Origin: Escherichia phage vB_EcoD_Teewinot
Sequence record: NC_073053.1
Reading direction: 5' to 3' (one strand)
DNA length: 41,800 bases
Positions 21,222 through 25,907 of the stretch are shown piece by piece. The notes below the pieces were generated by a model. It saw nothing but the letters and a program-made list of their open reading frames with translations. It did not search any database and was not told the DNA's origin. A program made the translations under genes and the position numbers. Within the stretch, counting starts at the first letter, position 1. Every line of letters starts with the position of its first letter.

Positions 21222-21245
21222 AAAATCCCCTTTCGGGGATTATTC
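21222..21245. terminator. bidirectional terminator between convergent genes
   Basis: ATCCCC-tttc-GGGGAT flanked by an A-run on one side and T-rich sequence on the other; sits between the + gene ending 21219 and the - gene ending 21240. Confidence 0.55.
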
Positions 21246-21458
21246 GCAGGTGGTGTTTTTGAAATGGTCTACCGACACGTACTGGAAGCTAAACGGATAA
21301 CCCGCCCTTAGCATTTTATGCCCGGAGAAGTCCGCAACACCATACACAGGGACCACATAATCCATGCCGCTATTCTGGTATGTGGCGTCGCAGACTTTAG
21401 CGGGCATGTCGGCACAACCTGACAAAAGAACCGCACAAATCATAATTAAAGTTTTCAT
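21240..21458 (-). CDS. small lipoprotein (candidate Cor-like superinfection exclusion protein)
   Basis: 72 aa, signal peptide with lipobox (AVLLSG-C), GAGGA RBS, own promoter; only minus-strand gene inside the tail gene block. Confidence 0.55.
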   Translation of the reverse strand: MKTLIMICAVLLSGCADMPAKVCDATYQNSGMDYVVPVYGVADFSGHKMLRAGYPFSFQYVSVDHFKNTTCE

Positions 21459-21491: not shown

Positions 21492-21519
21492 GTATTACAC
21501 CGCTCAACCAGGATTGCAA
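21492..21519 (-). promoter_or_regulatory. sigma70-like promoter for the lipoprotein gene
   Basis: On the minus strand: ATTGGTTGCAA supplies -35 TTGCAA (21519-21514), 16-bp spacer, -10 TAATAC (21497-21492). Confidence 0.4.
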
Positions 21520-21540
21520 CCAATTTATGGGGATTTAGCT

Positions 21541-22281
21541 ATGGCAGCGGGTACGCTATCCGTAACGAACAATAGCACGGCGGTAGTAGGAGTCGGCACA
21601 ACGTTTACCGCGTTTAAAGCTGGCGACTTCTTAACGCTGGTGGTAGGACAAGTGCCTTACACAGTGGCGATCGCATCAATCGAAAGTAACACGGCGCTTA
21701 CGCTGGTGTTGCCGTTCGACGGCCCAACGGCAACCGGCCTTGCTTGGGATGGTGTTAAGCGCGATACCATGTCGCTGGCAACGATGGGCGTTACCGTACA
21801 GGCACAGAAAGCGTTGCGATTGATGATTGCAGATGAAAACAACTGGCGTGCGATCTTCGGCGACGCTGAAGAAATTACCGTGACGTTACCTAACGGGCAA
21901 GTCATGCAGGGTATGTCATGGGGCTATCTGTCGAAATTGCTTAAGAACGTAGATCTGGTTGAGATGCGCGACCTCGCAGCGCAAGCCGAAGCATCAAAAT
22001 TGGCAGCGCAGGGATTCCGCGATCAGGCTGAGGAGTGGGCCCGCCAGCGCTTCGGTATTATCGCCGAGGAAGCGGAGCTAATTGCGCCGCAGTACGTTAA
22101 ACACCACGAGTTCCCGATCGAGGATATTCTCGACGAAGACGGCAACAAGATCGGGGAGAAGATGACGGACCGCCCATCCATCGACGTTAACCCGATCGTA
22201 ATGGACTTGATGGGATGTGTTCAATATCTCAATAAGCAGGTGGAGGAGTTGAAGGCCGAGATCGCGGCGTTGAAGAAATAA
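21541..22281 (+). CDS. tail fibre-like protein with C-terminal coiled coil
   Basis: ATG 21541 (the track start at 21514 is a TTG inside the promoter motif); N-terminus MAAGTLSVTNNSTAVVGVGTTF... is paralogous to the ORF at 14055; C-terminus ends in a heptad-like EELKAEIAALKK. Confidence 0.5.
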   Translation: MAAGTLSVTNNSTAVVGVGTTFTAFKAGDFLTLVVGQVPYTVAIASIESNTALTLVLPFDGPTATGLAWDGVKRDTMSLATMGVTVQAQKALRLMIADENNWRAIFGDAEEITVTLPNGQVMQGMSWGYLSKLLKNVDLVEMRDLAAQAEASKLAAQGFRDQAEEWARQRFGIIAEEAELIAPQYVKHHEFPIEDILDEDGNKIGEKMTDRPSIDVNPIVMDLMGCVQYLNKQVEELKAEIAALKK

Positions 22282-22288
22282 ATAGAAG

Positions 22289-22310
22289 GGGCCATACGGC
22301 CCCTTTTTCT
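22289..22310. terminator. bidirectional terminator between convergent blocks
   Basis: GGGGCC-atac-GGCCCC with an A-run upstream and T-run downstream; separates the plus-strand late block from the minus-strand block. Confidence 0.6.
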
Positions 22311-22884
22311 AGTTTGAGTTTTCCCAGGCCATTTTGCGCCGCACCAACGGGCTTTCGTAATACTCCTTTCCCTCCACTTCCACTAAGGGCCAGTCATTAA
22401 CAATGACGTATGGTTCCGCGATATCTTCAATAACGCCGTGCGCGCTTTGTGGCCCGAACGATACGCCCACCAGGATAACACCGGCAACTCTACGGGTGAG
22501 ATACTCGCGAGCGCAACGTGCTTCCACCAATCCGCGACGGATGCCGCTGGTGGCCTTAACCTCGTAGGTCCAGACGGCATCGATCACATGCTCGCGGAAG
22601 TCGGGGCCGGATTTAACCTTGCGCTTACCGACCATGATGATATCGCCGCGGTCGATGGTATTGGCGCTGAACAAGCCGGTACGCATGAGCAAGCCTTGCG
22701 GGATACAACTGCGCCCGCCTGCGTGCCCTTCTAGGTACATGCCCGCAAACATTTCGCCCAGCACACCGACCAGTCGGCTTTGCTTGCACGAGTCGGACGT
22801 TAAGCGCCATTGATCAAACTCGATGCTTGCTATCATTGCCGCCAGGTGGAATTGTTTACCTGATATTTCATATTCGCCGTACAT
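22309..22884 (-). CDS. hypothetical protein, possible PD-(D/E)xK nuclease
   Basis: 191 aa; contains GPDFREHVIDAVWTYEVK, i.e. a literal PD...ExK arrangement. Function is inference only. Confidence 0.4.
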   Translation of the reverse strand: MYGEYEISGKQFHLAAMIASIEFDQWRLTSDSCKQSRLVGVLGEMFAGMYLEGHAGGRSCIPQGLLMRTGLFSANTIDRGDIIMVGKRKVKSGPDFREHVIDAVWTYEVKATSGIRRGLVEARCAREYLTRRVAGVILVGVSFGPQSAHGVIEDIAEPYVIVNDWPLVEVEGKEYYESPLVRRKMAWENSN

Positions 22885-22926
22885 CGTGTGGTCCTCATTG
22901 ATGCGGGCCGAAGCCCGCGATTAGAG

Positions 22927-23448
22927 TTATTTAAGTGCGCCCGTCACCAGTGTTTTTTCCATGTTACGGAAGTCTTCCGGCGTCATGAGGATTTTCGTTC
23001 CGTCCTCGCCAGTGAGCACTACCATCGGCTGGACGTCCTTGGATACGACGCCGAAATTGGCGGCTTTGACAGTCTTGCCCGCCGATGCCGAAGGATGCCA
23101 CGTTCCGCCGGTGGCGATGGGCCAACCTTTAAGGCTGTCGTATTGCGCTGCCGTTGTATCGACCTGAATCTCGTCGTGTACGGTCATGTACGACTCGCCC
23201 AGCAAGGCCGCATACGCTACCAGGTCGACGATATTGTCTTCCTGGTGCTTACGGTGCTGGCGAACCAGCTTCAGGCAGATCAAGAAGGTCCAGGCTTCTT
23301 GCTCGGTCAGGTCGCGCCCGGTAAGCGCGTTAAACACGTCAGCGATTTGTTTAGCGCTGCGTTCTTCTTTCGCGTTGTCATAGCCGTTTTCTTTCCCGCG
23401 CTGCTCCATAGTGGTGGCGGCGTTTTTGCAGTATTCGTATGCTTTCAT
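22927..23448 (-). CDS. hypothetical protein
   Basis: 173 aa from the ATG at 23448 (AAGGA RBS). The track start at 23472 lies in the loop of a GGGGC/GCCCC hairpin. N-terminal helical region with EQEAWTFLICLKLVR; not confidently recognised. Confidence 0.5.
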   Translation of the reverse strand: MKAYEYCKNAATTMEQRGKENGYDNAKEERSAKQIADVFNALTGRDLTEQEAWTFLICLKLVRQHRKHQEDNIVDLVAYAALLGESYMTVHDEIQVDTTAAQYDSLKGWPIATGGTWHPSASAGKTVKAANFGVVSKDVQPMVVLTGEDGTKILMTPEDFRNMEKTLVTGALK

Positions 23449-23496
23449 TATGTGGTCCTTTTTAGGGGCCATATCGCCCCGACGCGTTAACTATAG

Positions 23497-23518
23497 TGCA
23501 ACCAACCTATTGGTTGCA
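23497..23518. promoter_or_regulatory. perfect inverted repeat of the ATTGGTTGCA motif (operator-like)
   Basis: TGCAACCAA-ccta-TTGGTTGCA; the TAG stop of the HAD gene lies in the 4-bp spacer. Confidence 0.5.
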
Positions 23519-23977
23519 AGTAAATTTTGCAACATTTATTGCGTAAATTTTCGGTACCAGATCGCTGCACGCCCGACGAATTGCCGCGATGTTATTCTCG
23601 CAATCTTCAATGATGACCAGTTCCGACACGTCTGCATAGCAGACCATTTTGAATACAGCGCACGCCTTAAACTCCGGCGGCGGGGTGTCGTCCAGCATGT
23701 GGCGCATAAACAACCGGCCTACGGGGAATACTTCCAATTGCTCGACGGTAGTCTCCCAGCATTCTCGCTGCCGGTTTGTCAGATACGCGATCTCGAAGCC
23801 TTGCTCTTTGTACATGCGCAACAGCGGCAGCATATCCATGTTCAGGTCTTCGCGTACATGCGCTTTGTGCCACTTTGCCCAAAAGGTTGATTTCGTTTTT
23901 ATCCCCGGCACCAGGTCGGCACGCGCATCGCTTGAACCGTTAATAACGCCATCCAGATCGCAAATCAGTAATTTCAT
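23507..23977 (-). CDS. HAD-superfamily phosphatase (putative nucleotidase)
   Basis: 156 aa beginning MKLLICDLDGVI, the DxDG(T/V) nucleophile motif of HAD hydrolases. Confidence 0.6.
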   Translation of the reverse strand: MKLLICDLDGVINGSSDARADLVPGIKTKSTFWAKWHKAHVREDLNMDMLPLLRMYKEQGFEIAYLTNRQRECWETTVEQLEVFPVGRLFMRHMLDDTPPPEFKACAVFKMVCYADVSELVIIEDCENNIAAIRRACSDLVPKIYAINVAKFTCNQ

Positions 23978-24198
23978 TTCAACTCCTCGATCAGATTCAT
24001 ACGAACAACACGGGCAGAAAAAGCGTCACACACAAGATGACAACGGGCGGTCATTACAAGCCAGCCGGTGAGGTCAAGGCCCATGATGTATTCGGGGCGA
24101 GACGCGCGCACCACACGATTGCGTCGCGGGTCAATACAGTAGTATTTTTGCATTTGGTCTACTACCGCGGGGTCGCGGTCAACGATTAAGATATTCAA
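23974..24198 (-). CDS. hypothetical protein
   Basis: 74 aa ORF, start and stop overlap neighbouring genes (translational coupling). Confidence 0.4.
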   Translation of the reverse strand: MNILIVDRDPAVVDQMQKYYCIDPRRNRVVRASRPEYIMGLDLTGWLVMTARCHLVCDAFSARVVRMNLIEELK

Positions 24199-24664
24199 GG
24201 AGTTCTCCTTCGCTCATTATTTCAATTTGTGCGCTGCCGATGGGTGGCGCTTCGTCAAAGATTATCAATTGCTGGCACTTGTTATTGCGAGGCCCGACTT
24301 CGCCGGTGACGGCGTGAATGAATCTAATCCGCCAGTCCAGAAGAATTATCAGGTTTGCAGTCTTCCTGGCCAGCTTCGCCCACTTCGTCGACGTGTCCTG
24401 ATTCAGTAGCATGACAGTCCGGCGTCCGTGCGCTGCACACTCGACCCACGGCAGCGGATCGGAATACGGCGGATTGCACCACTTCCACCCTTTCAACTCT
24501 GACCAGTCCACATCAAGCGCGCTGTGCTCTGCCGTGAAGTAACGCGGTAGCAGATGGTTGGCGTAGCTTGCCGCCATATCGTAACGGAATCGGAACTTAC
24601 GGCGCAGCGGTTTAAATAAAGCTGGCGGCGTGCGCCAGCTATCTTTCTGCTCACTCTTCTGCAT
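24179..24664 (-). CDS. DNA N6-adenine methyltransferase (phage Dam-type)
   Basis: 161 aa with DSWRTPP near the N-terminus and WCNPPYS (NPPY catalytic motif). Confidence 0.7.
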   Translation of the reverse strand: MQKSEQKDSWRTPPALFKPLRRKFRFRYDMAASYANHLLPRYFTAEHSALDVDWSELKGWKWCNPPYSDPLPWVECAAHGRRTVMLLNQDTSTKWAKLARKTANLIILLDWRIRFIHAVTGEVGPRNNKCQQLIIFDEAPPIGSAQIEIMSEGELLEYLNR

Positions 24665-25094
24665 AGTCTGGATCTATCGCATACAGGGCGGTTTTCTTGC
24701 TGCTGGATAGCACGCGTTGGACTCTGGACATCTCCTCCTTACTGAGCTGTCGGCTATCGGAATAGTAGCTGCCGTTTGCACGCCACGCTATACGCACCAG
24801 TCCTTTCAGCGGTATCGAAGACTTGCGACCTTTGGGGCGCACGTACGCCTCGGCCCGTTTGCAATGCTCGCGCAAACCTTCTGCTGTGAGTCGATTTAGT
24901 GCGACGGTGCGCTGCATAATACCCATCAACTCATACAGCAGATCGAAGCGCTCCTCTAATTCCTTGCGCGCCTTCTCCTCGCCTTCATAGCTCGCCAGAT
25001 AGGTGTCTGCCAGCGCGCTAACACGTTCGGCCTGTTCGCGGGCTTCGAGGCATTGCGCGGCCCAGTAATTTTTCTCTTCTTGTAAAATTTTCAT
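24651..25094 (-). CDS. hypothetical protein
   Basis: 147 aa, helical charged N-terminal half; GGAG RBS. Confidence 0.45.
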   Translation of the reverse strand: MKILQEEKNYWAAQCLEAREQAERVSALADTYLASYEGEEKARKELEERFDLLYELMGIMQRTVALNRLTAEGLREHCKRAEAYVRPKGRKSSIPLKGLVRIAWRANGSYYSDSRQLSKEEMSRVQRVLSSSKKTALYAIDPDYAEE

Positions 25095-25337
25095 TTATTT
25101 AATCTCCGTAGTGCGGATTTCCTTGCGCGGAATAAATTTGCCGTCTTTCTCGACCCAGCAAGTTCCGAAACGCCATTGGGTATTACGGCCTGTTTGCTCG
25201 GCATATACGGTCTTGCATTCGTAGCGTTCCGTATAGTAAATAGCCGCGGTAGGTACGAAAATACAAACGGCAAACATGAGGGTGAGTATCACCCAAAATC
25301 GAAGGTCGCCGTCGTAGTCGAAAAATAATGATCTCAT
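25095..25337 (-). CDS. small membrane protein
   Basis: 80 aa with one clear TM helix (FWVILTLMFAVCIFVPTAAIYY). Confidence 0.45.
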   Translation of the reverse strand: MRSLFFDYDGDLRFWVILTLMFAVCIFVPTAAIYYTERYECKTVYAEQTGRNTQWRFGTCWVEKDGKFIPRKEIRTTEIK

Positions 25338-25401: not shown

Positions 25402-25725
25402 TTACGCATAAAAGTTTGGGTCGCGTGCAACGTCTACCAGGTAAAGGTTGCTTATGCGGTTGCCGTAGTGCCCTGGAGTGCGCTGGCGGCACACAACGGC
25501 GAAGCCTGGAGGGATTGTATTGCCCGTCTCAATAATCCATGCCACGCGTGCGCCAGACAGCGTCTTGCCGTTGCATTCGATGCGTGTCCCACCATCGGCA
25601 GTATTGATGTTGCCAATCTTGCATCCGGTGGACTTCAGACGGATGACTCCGGTTTTGCTGTCGTAGGTGAATAGCTGGTTAGTCATTGCGACCGAAAAAT
25701 CGATTGGTTCGTATGTAGCGTTCAT
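25402..25725 (-). CDS. HNH_3-like protein with degenerate catalytic motif
   Basis: 107 aa; ARVAWIIETGNTIPPGFAVVCRQRTPGHYGNRISNLYLV aligns by eye to the HRLVWE...G.IP.G..IDHINGD..DNR..NL pattern of HNH_3 homing endonucleases, but the DH of IDH is replaced by VC. Confidence 0.45.
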   Translation of the reverse strand: MNATYEPIDFSVAMTNQLFTYDSKTGVIRLKSTGCKIGNINTADGGTRIECNGKTLSGARVAWIIETGNTIPPGFAVVCRQRTPGHYGNRISNLYLVDVARDPNFYA

Positions 25726-25907
25726 TTTAAATTTTCCTCGTTAACCGCTATCGCGAAGCCGCGCGGAGTGAGCGACCGGATTAATTTTGTGCGGGCTGAT
25801 TTACCACCGAGGCGACTATACTGTTTCGAGTACCCTTTTTCAACGAAAACAGGTTTCTTCTCTGGCATACGGAAGCCGCTGCCGTCAAACAATGGCCAGA
25901 TTATCAT
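25722..25907 (-). CDS. hypothetical protein
   Basis: 61 aa ORF tightly packed between helicase and HNH-like gene with overlapping start/stop codons. Confidence 0.35.
   Translation of the reverse strand: MIIWPLFDGSGFRMPEKKPVFVEKGYSKQYSRLGGKSARTKLIRSLTPRGFAIAVNEENLK

Follow-up and report, generated by a model that had tools for sequence, protein, structure and literature searches.

The DNA analyzed here is a stretch of 41,800 nucleotides from Escherichia phage vB_EcoD_Teewinot (sequence record NC_073053.1), which we refer to as the window and which its sequence places among the Dhillonvirus-like coliphages. Between positions 22309 and 24664, its minus strand carries a block of five genes coding, in the direction of transcription, for a Dam-family methyltransferase, a homolog of the phage protein Ksap1, a HAD-superfamily phosphatase, a protein with a DUF6378 domain (gpB), and a predicted nuclease of the PD-(D/E)xK type (gpA). 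We read this block as the dispensable far end of the leftward transcription block for DNA metabolism, made up of five accessory genes in two expression units, and we give this reading a probability of about 0.6. The block is an ordinary accessory gene set rather than a new anti-restriction machine, and its genes are best seen as host-interaction and nucleic-acid-processing accessories that share a location, not as the parts of one machine. The identities of the genes, their conservation, catalytic residues, fold, and organization have been established computationally.

The block is widespread and well conserved. A query of 2.6 kb around it matched 156 GenBank phage records, 149 of which cover at least 80% of the query with 88 to 92% nucleotide identity. 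Nearly all of these records are phages of the genus Dhillonvirus infecting Escherichia or Shigella, e.g., Opt212, Envy, SECphi18, and Oekolampad/Bas18, and the gene order of the window is the same in the annotated relatives (SECphi18 and Oekolampad). The order Dam, small gene, HAD, DUF6378, gpA is preserved even where the gpA of the relative is only 55 to 56% identical. The region has thus been sequenced many times, and its genes are mostly labeled "hypothetical protein" in the records. A first-pass annotation made from the letters alone had placed the genes of the block at the end of the minus-strand block, and all five open reading frames (ORFs) in the ORF list do lie there on that strand.

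The organization of the block points to two expression units. Upstream, the reading frames of p147 (a protein of 147 amino acids [aa]; 24651 to 25094, minus strand) and Dam (24179 to 24664) overlap by 14 nucleotides (nt), those of Dam and Ksap1 (23974 to 24198) by 20 nt, and those of Ksap1 and HAD (23507 to 23977) by 4 nt; because of these overlaps, the four genes are probably translationally coupled. Between HAD and gpB (22927 to 23448) lies a gap of 58 nt (23449 to 23506) that does not vary between the window, SECphi18, and Oekolampad, its conservation exceeding that of the coding DNA on either side. A promoter-like site, TTGCAA-18-TATAGT (23490 to 23519, minus strand), which is a consensus match invariant in the three genomes, holds a perfect 9-bp inverted repeat (23497 to 23518) that is unique in the window, with 0 such occurrences expected by chance. 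Past this site and just upstream of gpB there is a GGGGC/GCCCC hairpin (23464 to 23480). This GC hairpin, AGGGGCCATAcGGCCCC, has a near-copy at 22287 to 22303, in the terminator that follows gpA (22309 to 22884), so that the two copies bracket the gpB-gpA pair, and both genes of the pair share the start context AGGACCACAnnATG. The terminator itself (22284 to 22307) is a bidirectional intrinsic terminator with a GC-rich hairpin and T-runs on both strands, forming a 10-bp stem with six G-C pairs on the plus strand and an 8-bp stem on the minus strand; it separates the convergent tail fiber gene (plus strand) from gpA and ends the minus-strand block. We read these signals as splitting the block into the units p147-Dam-Ksap1-HAD and gpB-gpA, the latter preceded by a candidate promoter. 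The single module proposed in the first-pass annotation does not fit this arrangement.

At least part of the block is dispensable. SECphi18 mutants that lack ksap1 together with part of its upstream gene, which is Dam judging by gene order, remain viable (PMC11564622), and the phage GeorgBuechner/Bas16 naturally lacks residues 1 to 99 of the HAD protein, of which only residues 100 to 156 remain. Ksap1 and at least part of Dam and HAD are therefore dispensable, given these published and natural deletions, and the initial proposal that these are accessory genes rather than core replication genes is borne out by them.

The methyltransferase (24179 to 24664, minus strand, 161 aa) is predicted to be a clear orphan phage Dam-family N6-adenine methyltransferase. 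It matches Pfam PF05869 with an E value of 4.6e-35 and 121.2 bits (gathering cut-off, 28.1), and the catalytic (D/N)PPY motif is present as NPPY at residues 64 to 67; both agree with the Dam-type enzyme first noticed from the letters alone. Against NCBIfam TIGR01712 it scores 83.6 bits, under the equivalog cut-off of 97.05. Judging from the family, its target would be GATC. Homologs of this protein were found in 1,243 phage records, a sequence search of the PDB found no relatives of solved structure, and PADLOC reported no defense-type matches in the block apart from orphan methyltransferase models for Dam.

The next gene, which the first pass had left unnamed, is a 74-aa ORF (23974 to 24198, minus strand) whose product is 73% identical to SECphi18 Ksap1 over the full 74 residues and 78% identical to the Oekolampad copy, and matches phrog_10685 with an E value of 1.5e-44. 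On this similarity and on synteny, it is a Ksap1 homolog. The SECphi18 protein, also of 74 aa and encoded between the methyltransferase and the phosphatase, binds and activates the Klebsiella pneumoniae sensor KpAvs2 (Bechon et al. 2024, PMC11564622). Phages escaping KpAvs2 carried ksap1 point mutations (L47R and T50P) or deletions, and the triple mutant K30V L39M F60V, which introduces SECphi6-type residues, abolished activation; the authors did not find the function of Ksap1 itself and noted a marginal receiver-domain-like structure (PMC11564622). The window protein carries V30 and M39, as in the nonactivating SECphi6 type, yet keeps F60, L47, and T50, so recognition of this variant by KpAvs2 is uncertain. 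As Ksap1 and the adjacent HAD protein both start with an hhhhDxD pattern, we considered whether Ksap1 could be a fragment or paralog of its neighbor, and rejected this, since BLASTP found no similarity and Pfam no match.

The HAD protein (23507 to 23977, minus strand, 156 aa) matches phrog_415 with an E value of 5.4e-37. Motif I (DLDGV) is at residue 7, and D7, D9, S/T67-N68-R69, and D125 are invariant in five sequences, down to 28% identity. The motif III lysine is K104 in the window protein and is missing from some homologs, while a minimal cap contains W33, W36, and H37, invariant among homologs. The P-loop is absent, and no solved relative was found by sequence search of the PDB. There are weak matches to models of subfamily III (Acid_phosphat_B, lipo_e_P4, HAD-IIIA, and HAD_PNKP), every one under its curated cut-off, those in NCBIfam by a wide margin; that to Pfam Acid_phosphat_B, at 25.2, is just under the cut-off of 27. 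With its small aromatic cap, the protein resembles an active phosphomonoesterase, and the HAD phosphatase of the first-pass annotation stands on both the phrog_415 match and the conserved catalytic residues. In N4-like phages, HAD homologs are found between DNA polymerase I and a DNA methylase. Two N4-like Cbunavirus phages (L022, 2495 to 2962; L023, 2495 to 2968) have homologs with 28 to 30% full-length identity just downstream of DNA polymerase I, and in phage Possum a DNA methylase follows the homolog at about 0.8 kb, which makes this the second operon to combine a phosphatase with a methylase.

The protein we call gpB (22927 to 23448, minus strand, 173 aa) matches Pfam DUF6378 (PF19905) with 39 bits (gathering cut-off, 27.1), as do all 50 aligned homologs. 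In the AlphaFold model, four long helices (residues 3 to 92) form an N-terminal bundle with a predicted local distance difference test score (pLDDT) above 90, and the C terminus is a small conserved hairpin plus helix. The linker between them (about residues 100 to 140) is disordered and partly repetitive; relatives differ in its length and repeats, so that their proteins range from 130 to 223 aa. An AAGGA ribosome-binding site 7 nt ahead supports position 23448 as the start, while an ATG further upstream at 23472 is not conserved in relatives. Both the start and the helical nature proposed for this protein in the first pass were thus right. No informative structural match was found, a profile search of PDB sequences gave no result, and gpB showed no detectable sequence similarity or specific structural similarity to Nmad1 or MazG-like all-alpha nucleotide enzymes; not one of the 50 DUF6378 proteins matched PF07659 (Nmad1), nor did any match another nucleotide-enzyme model, with E values up to 1 allowed. 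In seven unrelated phage contigs, the neighbors of DUF6378 genes include a Metallophos phosphoesterase with an RNA ligase, a dUTPase, dGTP_diPhyd_N, Nmad5/YAcAr, Dam with Nmad5, and, in two contigs, a DHHA1 phosphoesterase, one of them accompanied by a dimeric dUTPase (dUTPase_2). These neighborhoods lean toward nucleotide and nucleic-acid metabolism, which is suggestive only, as early phage regions are generally rich in such genes. In two metagenomic contigs (L010, 2179 to 4360; L017, 936 to 4285), DUF6378 is the second gene past an Nmad5 protein, the gene in between coding for an unannotated product of about 245 aa. The gene string of one contig also includes a Dam-family methyltransferase, that of the other a YAcAr domain protein. 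Nmad5, the intervening protein, and DUF6378 may form a conserved trio in two unrelated phages.

The last gene of the operon codes for gpA (22309 to 22884, minus strand, 191 aa), which the first-pass annotation called nuclease-like on account of a literal PD...ExK string. The string is there (P94-D95 and E108-V-K110), but it is no better than chance, as "E.K" occurs in seven of nine neighboring proteins, and P94-D95 falls in a variable, nonconserved stretch of the model with a mean pLDDT of 55 to 68 over residues 81 to 100 and below 50 at 89 to 91. We have therefore rejected the literal motif as evidence for a nuclease. The functional prediction itself holds on other grounds. Sixteen members of the family, down to 23% identity, share invariant G40, E44, G64, R68, D81, E108, K110, I161, and W165. 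The AlphaFold model (pLDDT, 82; predicted template modeling score, 0.79) places E44 on a long helix (residues 34 to 53), D81 at the opening of a strand (81 to 87), and E108-x-K110 on the next strand (101 to 112), within a restriction-endonuclease-like alpha/beta core whose fold matches PD-(D/E)xK nucleases. Given this fold and the invariant residues, gpA is predicted to be a PD-(D/E)xK nuclease with E44, D81, E108, and K110 as catalytic candidates; no Pfam or NCBIfam model matched it, and a profile search of PDB sequences gave no result.

The family of gpA is small: a collection of 5.8 billion proteins holds 7 clusters, and another of 1.8 billion holds 15 representatives at 50% identity. Outside the Dhillonvirus phages, homologs with 30 to 38% identity occur in T1-like phages of Klebsiella, Enterobacter, E. 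coli, and Pectobacterium, always as the last gene of an operon composed of primase, methyltransferase(s), small ORFs, and gpA, with the lysis genes next. In four T1-like lineages, one or two DNA methyltransferases precede the gpA homolog by one to three genes, and three of the four also have a DUF6378-containing protein within about 2 kb of it, on the other strand. Beyond T1-like phages, three single-protein scans came back empty, and a profile scan gave only Webervirus-/T1-like contigs of 43 to 47 kb.

Upstream of the block, the window retains only a remnant of a Dcm-like C5-cytosine methyltransferase (25722 to 25907, minus strand). The gene spans 696 to 711 bp in relatives, and what is left here after an in-frame internal deletion of about 510 bp is a 61-aa ORF with the N-terminal "LFDGSG" plus a C-terminal portion, residues 10 to 59 matching the C-terminal end of phrog_757. 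The deletion is judged to be inactivating, leaving the phage with no functional Dcm. In BLAST searches, all 15 best-matching relatives listed matched the junction in two pieces spanning about 810 bp, so the deletion looks private to Teewinot, being shared by none of these top relatives. In a T1-like phage, the Dcm-like enzyme triggers retron Ec86/Eco1 and is deleted in escapers; by analogy, the loss here could be the scar of a defense escape. Two further genes lie between the remnant and the accessory block: an HNH homing-endonuclease-like gene (25402 to 25725, minus strand; phrog_99, E value of 3.8e-16) and an 80-aa gene (25095 to 25337) that is found in Oekolampad and is absent from SECphi18.

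Taken as a set of separate accessories, the proteins of the block can tentatively be described as follows. Dam would methylate replicating phage DNA, presumably at GATC; HAD would most likely be a nucleotide or nucleic-acid-end phosphatase; gpA would be a metal-dependent endonuclease with host or replicative DNA as its putative substrate; and gpB joins a DUF6378 helical bundle, through its linker, to a small domain at the C terminus. We put forward only tentatively, and think it somewhat improbable, that HAD and gpA process nucleotides or DNA, in the turnover of host DNA or of branched replication DNA, rather than modify bases.

The proposal in the first-pass annotation that the block may protect the phage from restriction is not supported. 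According to the BASEL study, Dhillonvirus phages are sensitive to type I and type II restriction-modification (RM), compared with the deazaguanine-modified Nonagvirus and Seuratvirus phages, and our Pfam, PHROG, and NCBIfam searches found no base-modifying, glycosyl-transfer, transglycosylase, or deoxynucleoside monophosphate (dNMP)-hydroxymethylase enzyme in the block. Dcm has moreover been lost. Neither GATC (153 genome sites; observed/expected, 0.81 to 0.95) nor CCWGG (140 sites; observed/expected, 0.93) is avoided, and there are therefore many methylation targets; Dam, for its part, can only protect against enzymes that are blocked by its mark. The known experimental biology of the locus runs the opposite way: Ksap1 is sensed by KpAvs2, and phage Dam and Dcm trigger retrons, Dam being the trigger of Retron-Sen2.

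One alternative is that Dam, HAD, the DUF6378 protein, and the nuclease do form one integrated DNA-modification or nucleotide-pool module, altering the phage DNA or the pool of deoxynucleoside triphosphates to escape restriction. Dam is a true modification enzyme, DUF6378 proteins lie beside Nmad5/YAcAr domains and Dam in other phages, RefSeq labels the SECphi18 gpB ortholog "Nucleotide modification associated protein," HAD homologs occur near DNA methylases in N4-like phages, and the gene order is kept in divergent relatives. These observations must be set against the absence from the block of any of the modifying enzymes listed above, the failure of all 50 DUF6378 proteins to match PF07659 or another nucleotide-enzyme model, the reported RM sensitivity, the loss of Dcm, the separation of the genes into two expression units, and the fact that parts of the block can be deleted with viability kept. 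We consider such a module unlikely. What survives of the DNA-modification or nucleotide-pool content seen in the first pass is one modification enzyme, Dam, and the nucleotide-metabolism neighbors of DUF6378 and HAD homologs elsewhere; the single module does not.

A second and decidedly speculative possibility, to which we attach little probability, is that gpB-gpA is an autonomous cassette with its own promoter/operator and the same GC hairpin on each side. Here, gpA would be an arms-race nuclease that destroys, for instance, the multicopy single-stranded DNA of retrons, or that senses methylation state together with the phage methylases. A Dhillonvirus protein of unknown function, unnamed in the paper, triggers Retron-Eco7 (PMC12640716), and under this idea gpA would be that trigger.

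That gpA homologs recur one to three genes past DNA methyltransferases in the four T1-like lineages could also suggest an RM-like pair, in which gpA cuts DNA devoid of the phage marks, from the host or a competing phage, while Dam (with Dcm in relatives) shields the phage's own DNA. We hold this to be highly improbable. Dam and Dcm marks are already present on the DNA of an E. coli K-12 host, which a nuclease blocked by these marks could therefore not attack. The lineages that show the linkage are related, and shared ancestry explains it; Dam-family genes occur in many T1-like phages, whereas the searches located gpA homologs in Dhillonvirus and some of the T1-like phages only. Indirectly, the viability of the SECphi18 escapers that have lost part of the gene upstream of ksap1 (Dam by gene order) and the persistence of an intact gpA in the window, although Dcm is deleted, also argue against a pair.

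There is similarly little chance that the block is an end-healing or repair set comparable to T4 PseT plus ligase, with HAD stripping the 3'-phosphates left by host anticodon nucleases or other defense nucleases and neighboring genes finishing the repair. This idea draws on the label "polynucleotide kinase" of phrog_415, on weak matches of divergent HAD orthologs to HAD_PNKP and HAD_SAK_2, on the single DUF6378 gene found elsewhere beside a Metallophos phosphoesterase and an RNA ligase, and on the PHROG label "DNA ligase" of phrog_10530, the only match of p147. The HAD_PNKP and HAD_SAK_2 matches, however, are far under their cut-offs, and P-loop kinase and KxDG ligase motifs are found in none of nine neighboring proteins. 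The ligase label of p147 looks wrong, as the protein has no KxDG motif and no match in Pfam or NCBIfam searches. More generally, the labels "DNA ligase," "phosphofructokinase," and "polynucleotide kinase" found in databases are not supported.

Least credible of all is that gpA is a free-standing homing endonuclease, a selfish element, as an HNH homing-type gene 2.5 kb upstream might suggest: gpA occupies the same position in essentially all Dhillonvirus genomes, with 92 to 98% protein identity, and is present in divergent relatives as well, and we rejected this candidate because homing genes are distributed sporadically, quite unlike such a uniform presence at a fixed position.

We thus return to an accessory gene set in two expression units, against which several points weigh. 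The promoter between the units is a consensus match, and such matches are no commoner than in shuffled sequence over the scanned region. What we have called co-location could, behind the gene order that relatives keep, be a genuine functional link, and gpA lies downstream of methyltransferases in the four T1-like lineages, although these lineages are related and are not independent evidence either way; overall, the linkages among gpA, DUF6378, and HAD are compatible with a functional connection, most of them coming from related lineages, and the scans made for independent ones turned up none. As to the individual proteins, Dam is under the NCBIfam equivalog cut-off, and for this reason its GATC specificity is assumed from the family only; the subfamily of HAD is only tentative, with every Pfam and NCBIfam match under its cut-off; and gpB has no informative structural match.

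Other features of the window were noted along the way. Across the terminator from gpA, the lateral tail fiber gene (21514 to 22281, plus strand) codes for 255 aa, whereas the SECphi18 and Oekolampad proteins have about 600 aa; resemblance to the relatives is limited to roughly the first 500 nt, and there is no Pfam match, so this could be a short allele or one whose distal receptor-binding part has been deleted. A predicted lipoprotein of 72 aa (21240 to 21458, minus strand), with an LSGC lipobox and no Pfam match, is encoded between tail genes on the opposite strand; at this site, the annotation of SECphi18 lists a "Cor superinfection exclusion protein." CTAG is strongly depleted over the whole window, with 11 sites and an observed/expected ratio of 0.23 under a Markov model and 0.07 from base composition.

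None of these findings on the block overturns current understanding. Their value is rather a better annotation for a block common to about 150 sequenced coliphages, among them SECphi18 and BASEL phages Bas14 to Bas18, which are workhorses of defense-system research. The last gene, formerly "hypothetical," now has a predicted PD-(D/E)xK nuclease product with a defined catalytic tetrad, and the Ksap1 of the window is a variant with two of the three substitutions of the triple mutant that failed to activate KpAvs2. The block shows phage methylases and small accessory proteins to be double-edged, as they may help against restriction and yet are detected by Avs2 and retrons; detection by retrons may be the reason for the loss of Dcm in this phage.

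Compared with known systems, gpA is nearest to the minimal-core PD-(D/E)xK nucleases I-Ssp6803I, archaeal Hjc, the DpnI catalytic domain, and influenza PA-N. It differs from them in its sequence, with identities of 8 to 16%, in an extra N-terminal strand and helix, in a C-terminal subdomain with invariant P158, I161, and W165, and in a distribution confined to Dhillonvirus- and T1-like phages. The HAD protein shares with subfamily III phosphatases (class B acid phosphatase/e(P4) nucleotidases and the phosphatase domain of polynucleotide kinase) the DxDxV motif I, the S/T-N-R motif II, and the C-terminal acidic motif; with only 156 residues, it has no kinase domain, and, unlike the periplasmic and outer-membrane enzymes, it has no signal peptide or lipobox. 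Like Nmad1 (PF07659/DUF1599), gpB is a small all-helical phage protein near nucleotide-metabolism genes, and the RefSeq name of its SECphi18 ortholog points the same way, but it matches PF19905 and not PF07659, so that any relationship is conjectural.

The methyltransferase resembles the phage Dam family (PF05869, with the orphan enzymes of T1-like and Stx phages) in its strong hidden Markov model match, its small size, its NPPY motif, and its orphan state, with no cognate restriction enzyme annotated by PADLOC, although it is just 30 to 37% identical to the T1-like and Stx-phage proteins. The closest known counterpart of the whole region is the Dam-Ksap1-phosphatase locus of SECphi18. The window differs from it in a Ksap1 that is just 73% identical and carries V30 and M39, in having no functional Dcm, and in its short tail fiber allele. 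The two loci otherwise share 90% nucleotide identity over the block and the same gene order, and in both a 74-aa Ksap1, which here keeps L47, T50, and F60, is encoded between the methyltransferase and the phosphatase.

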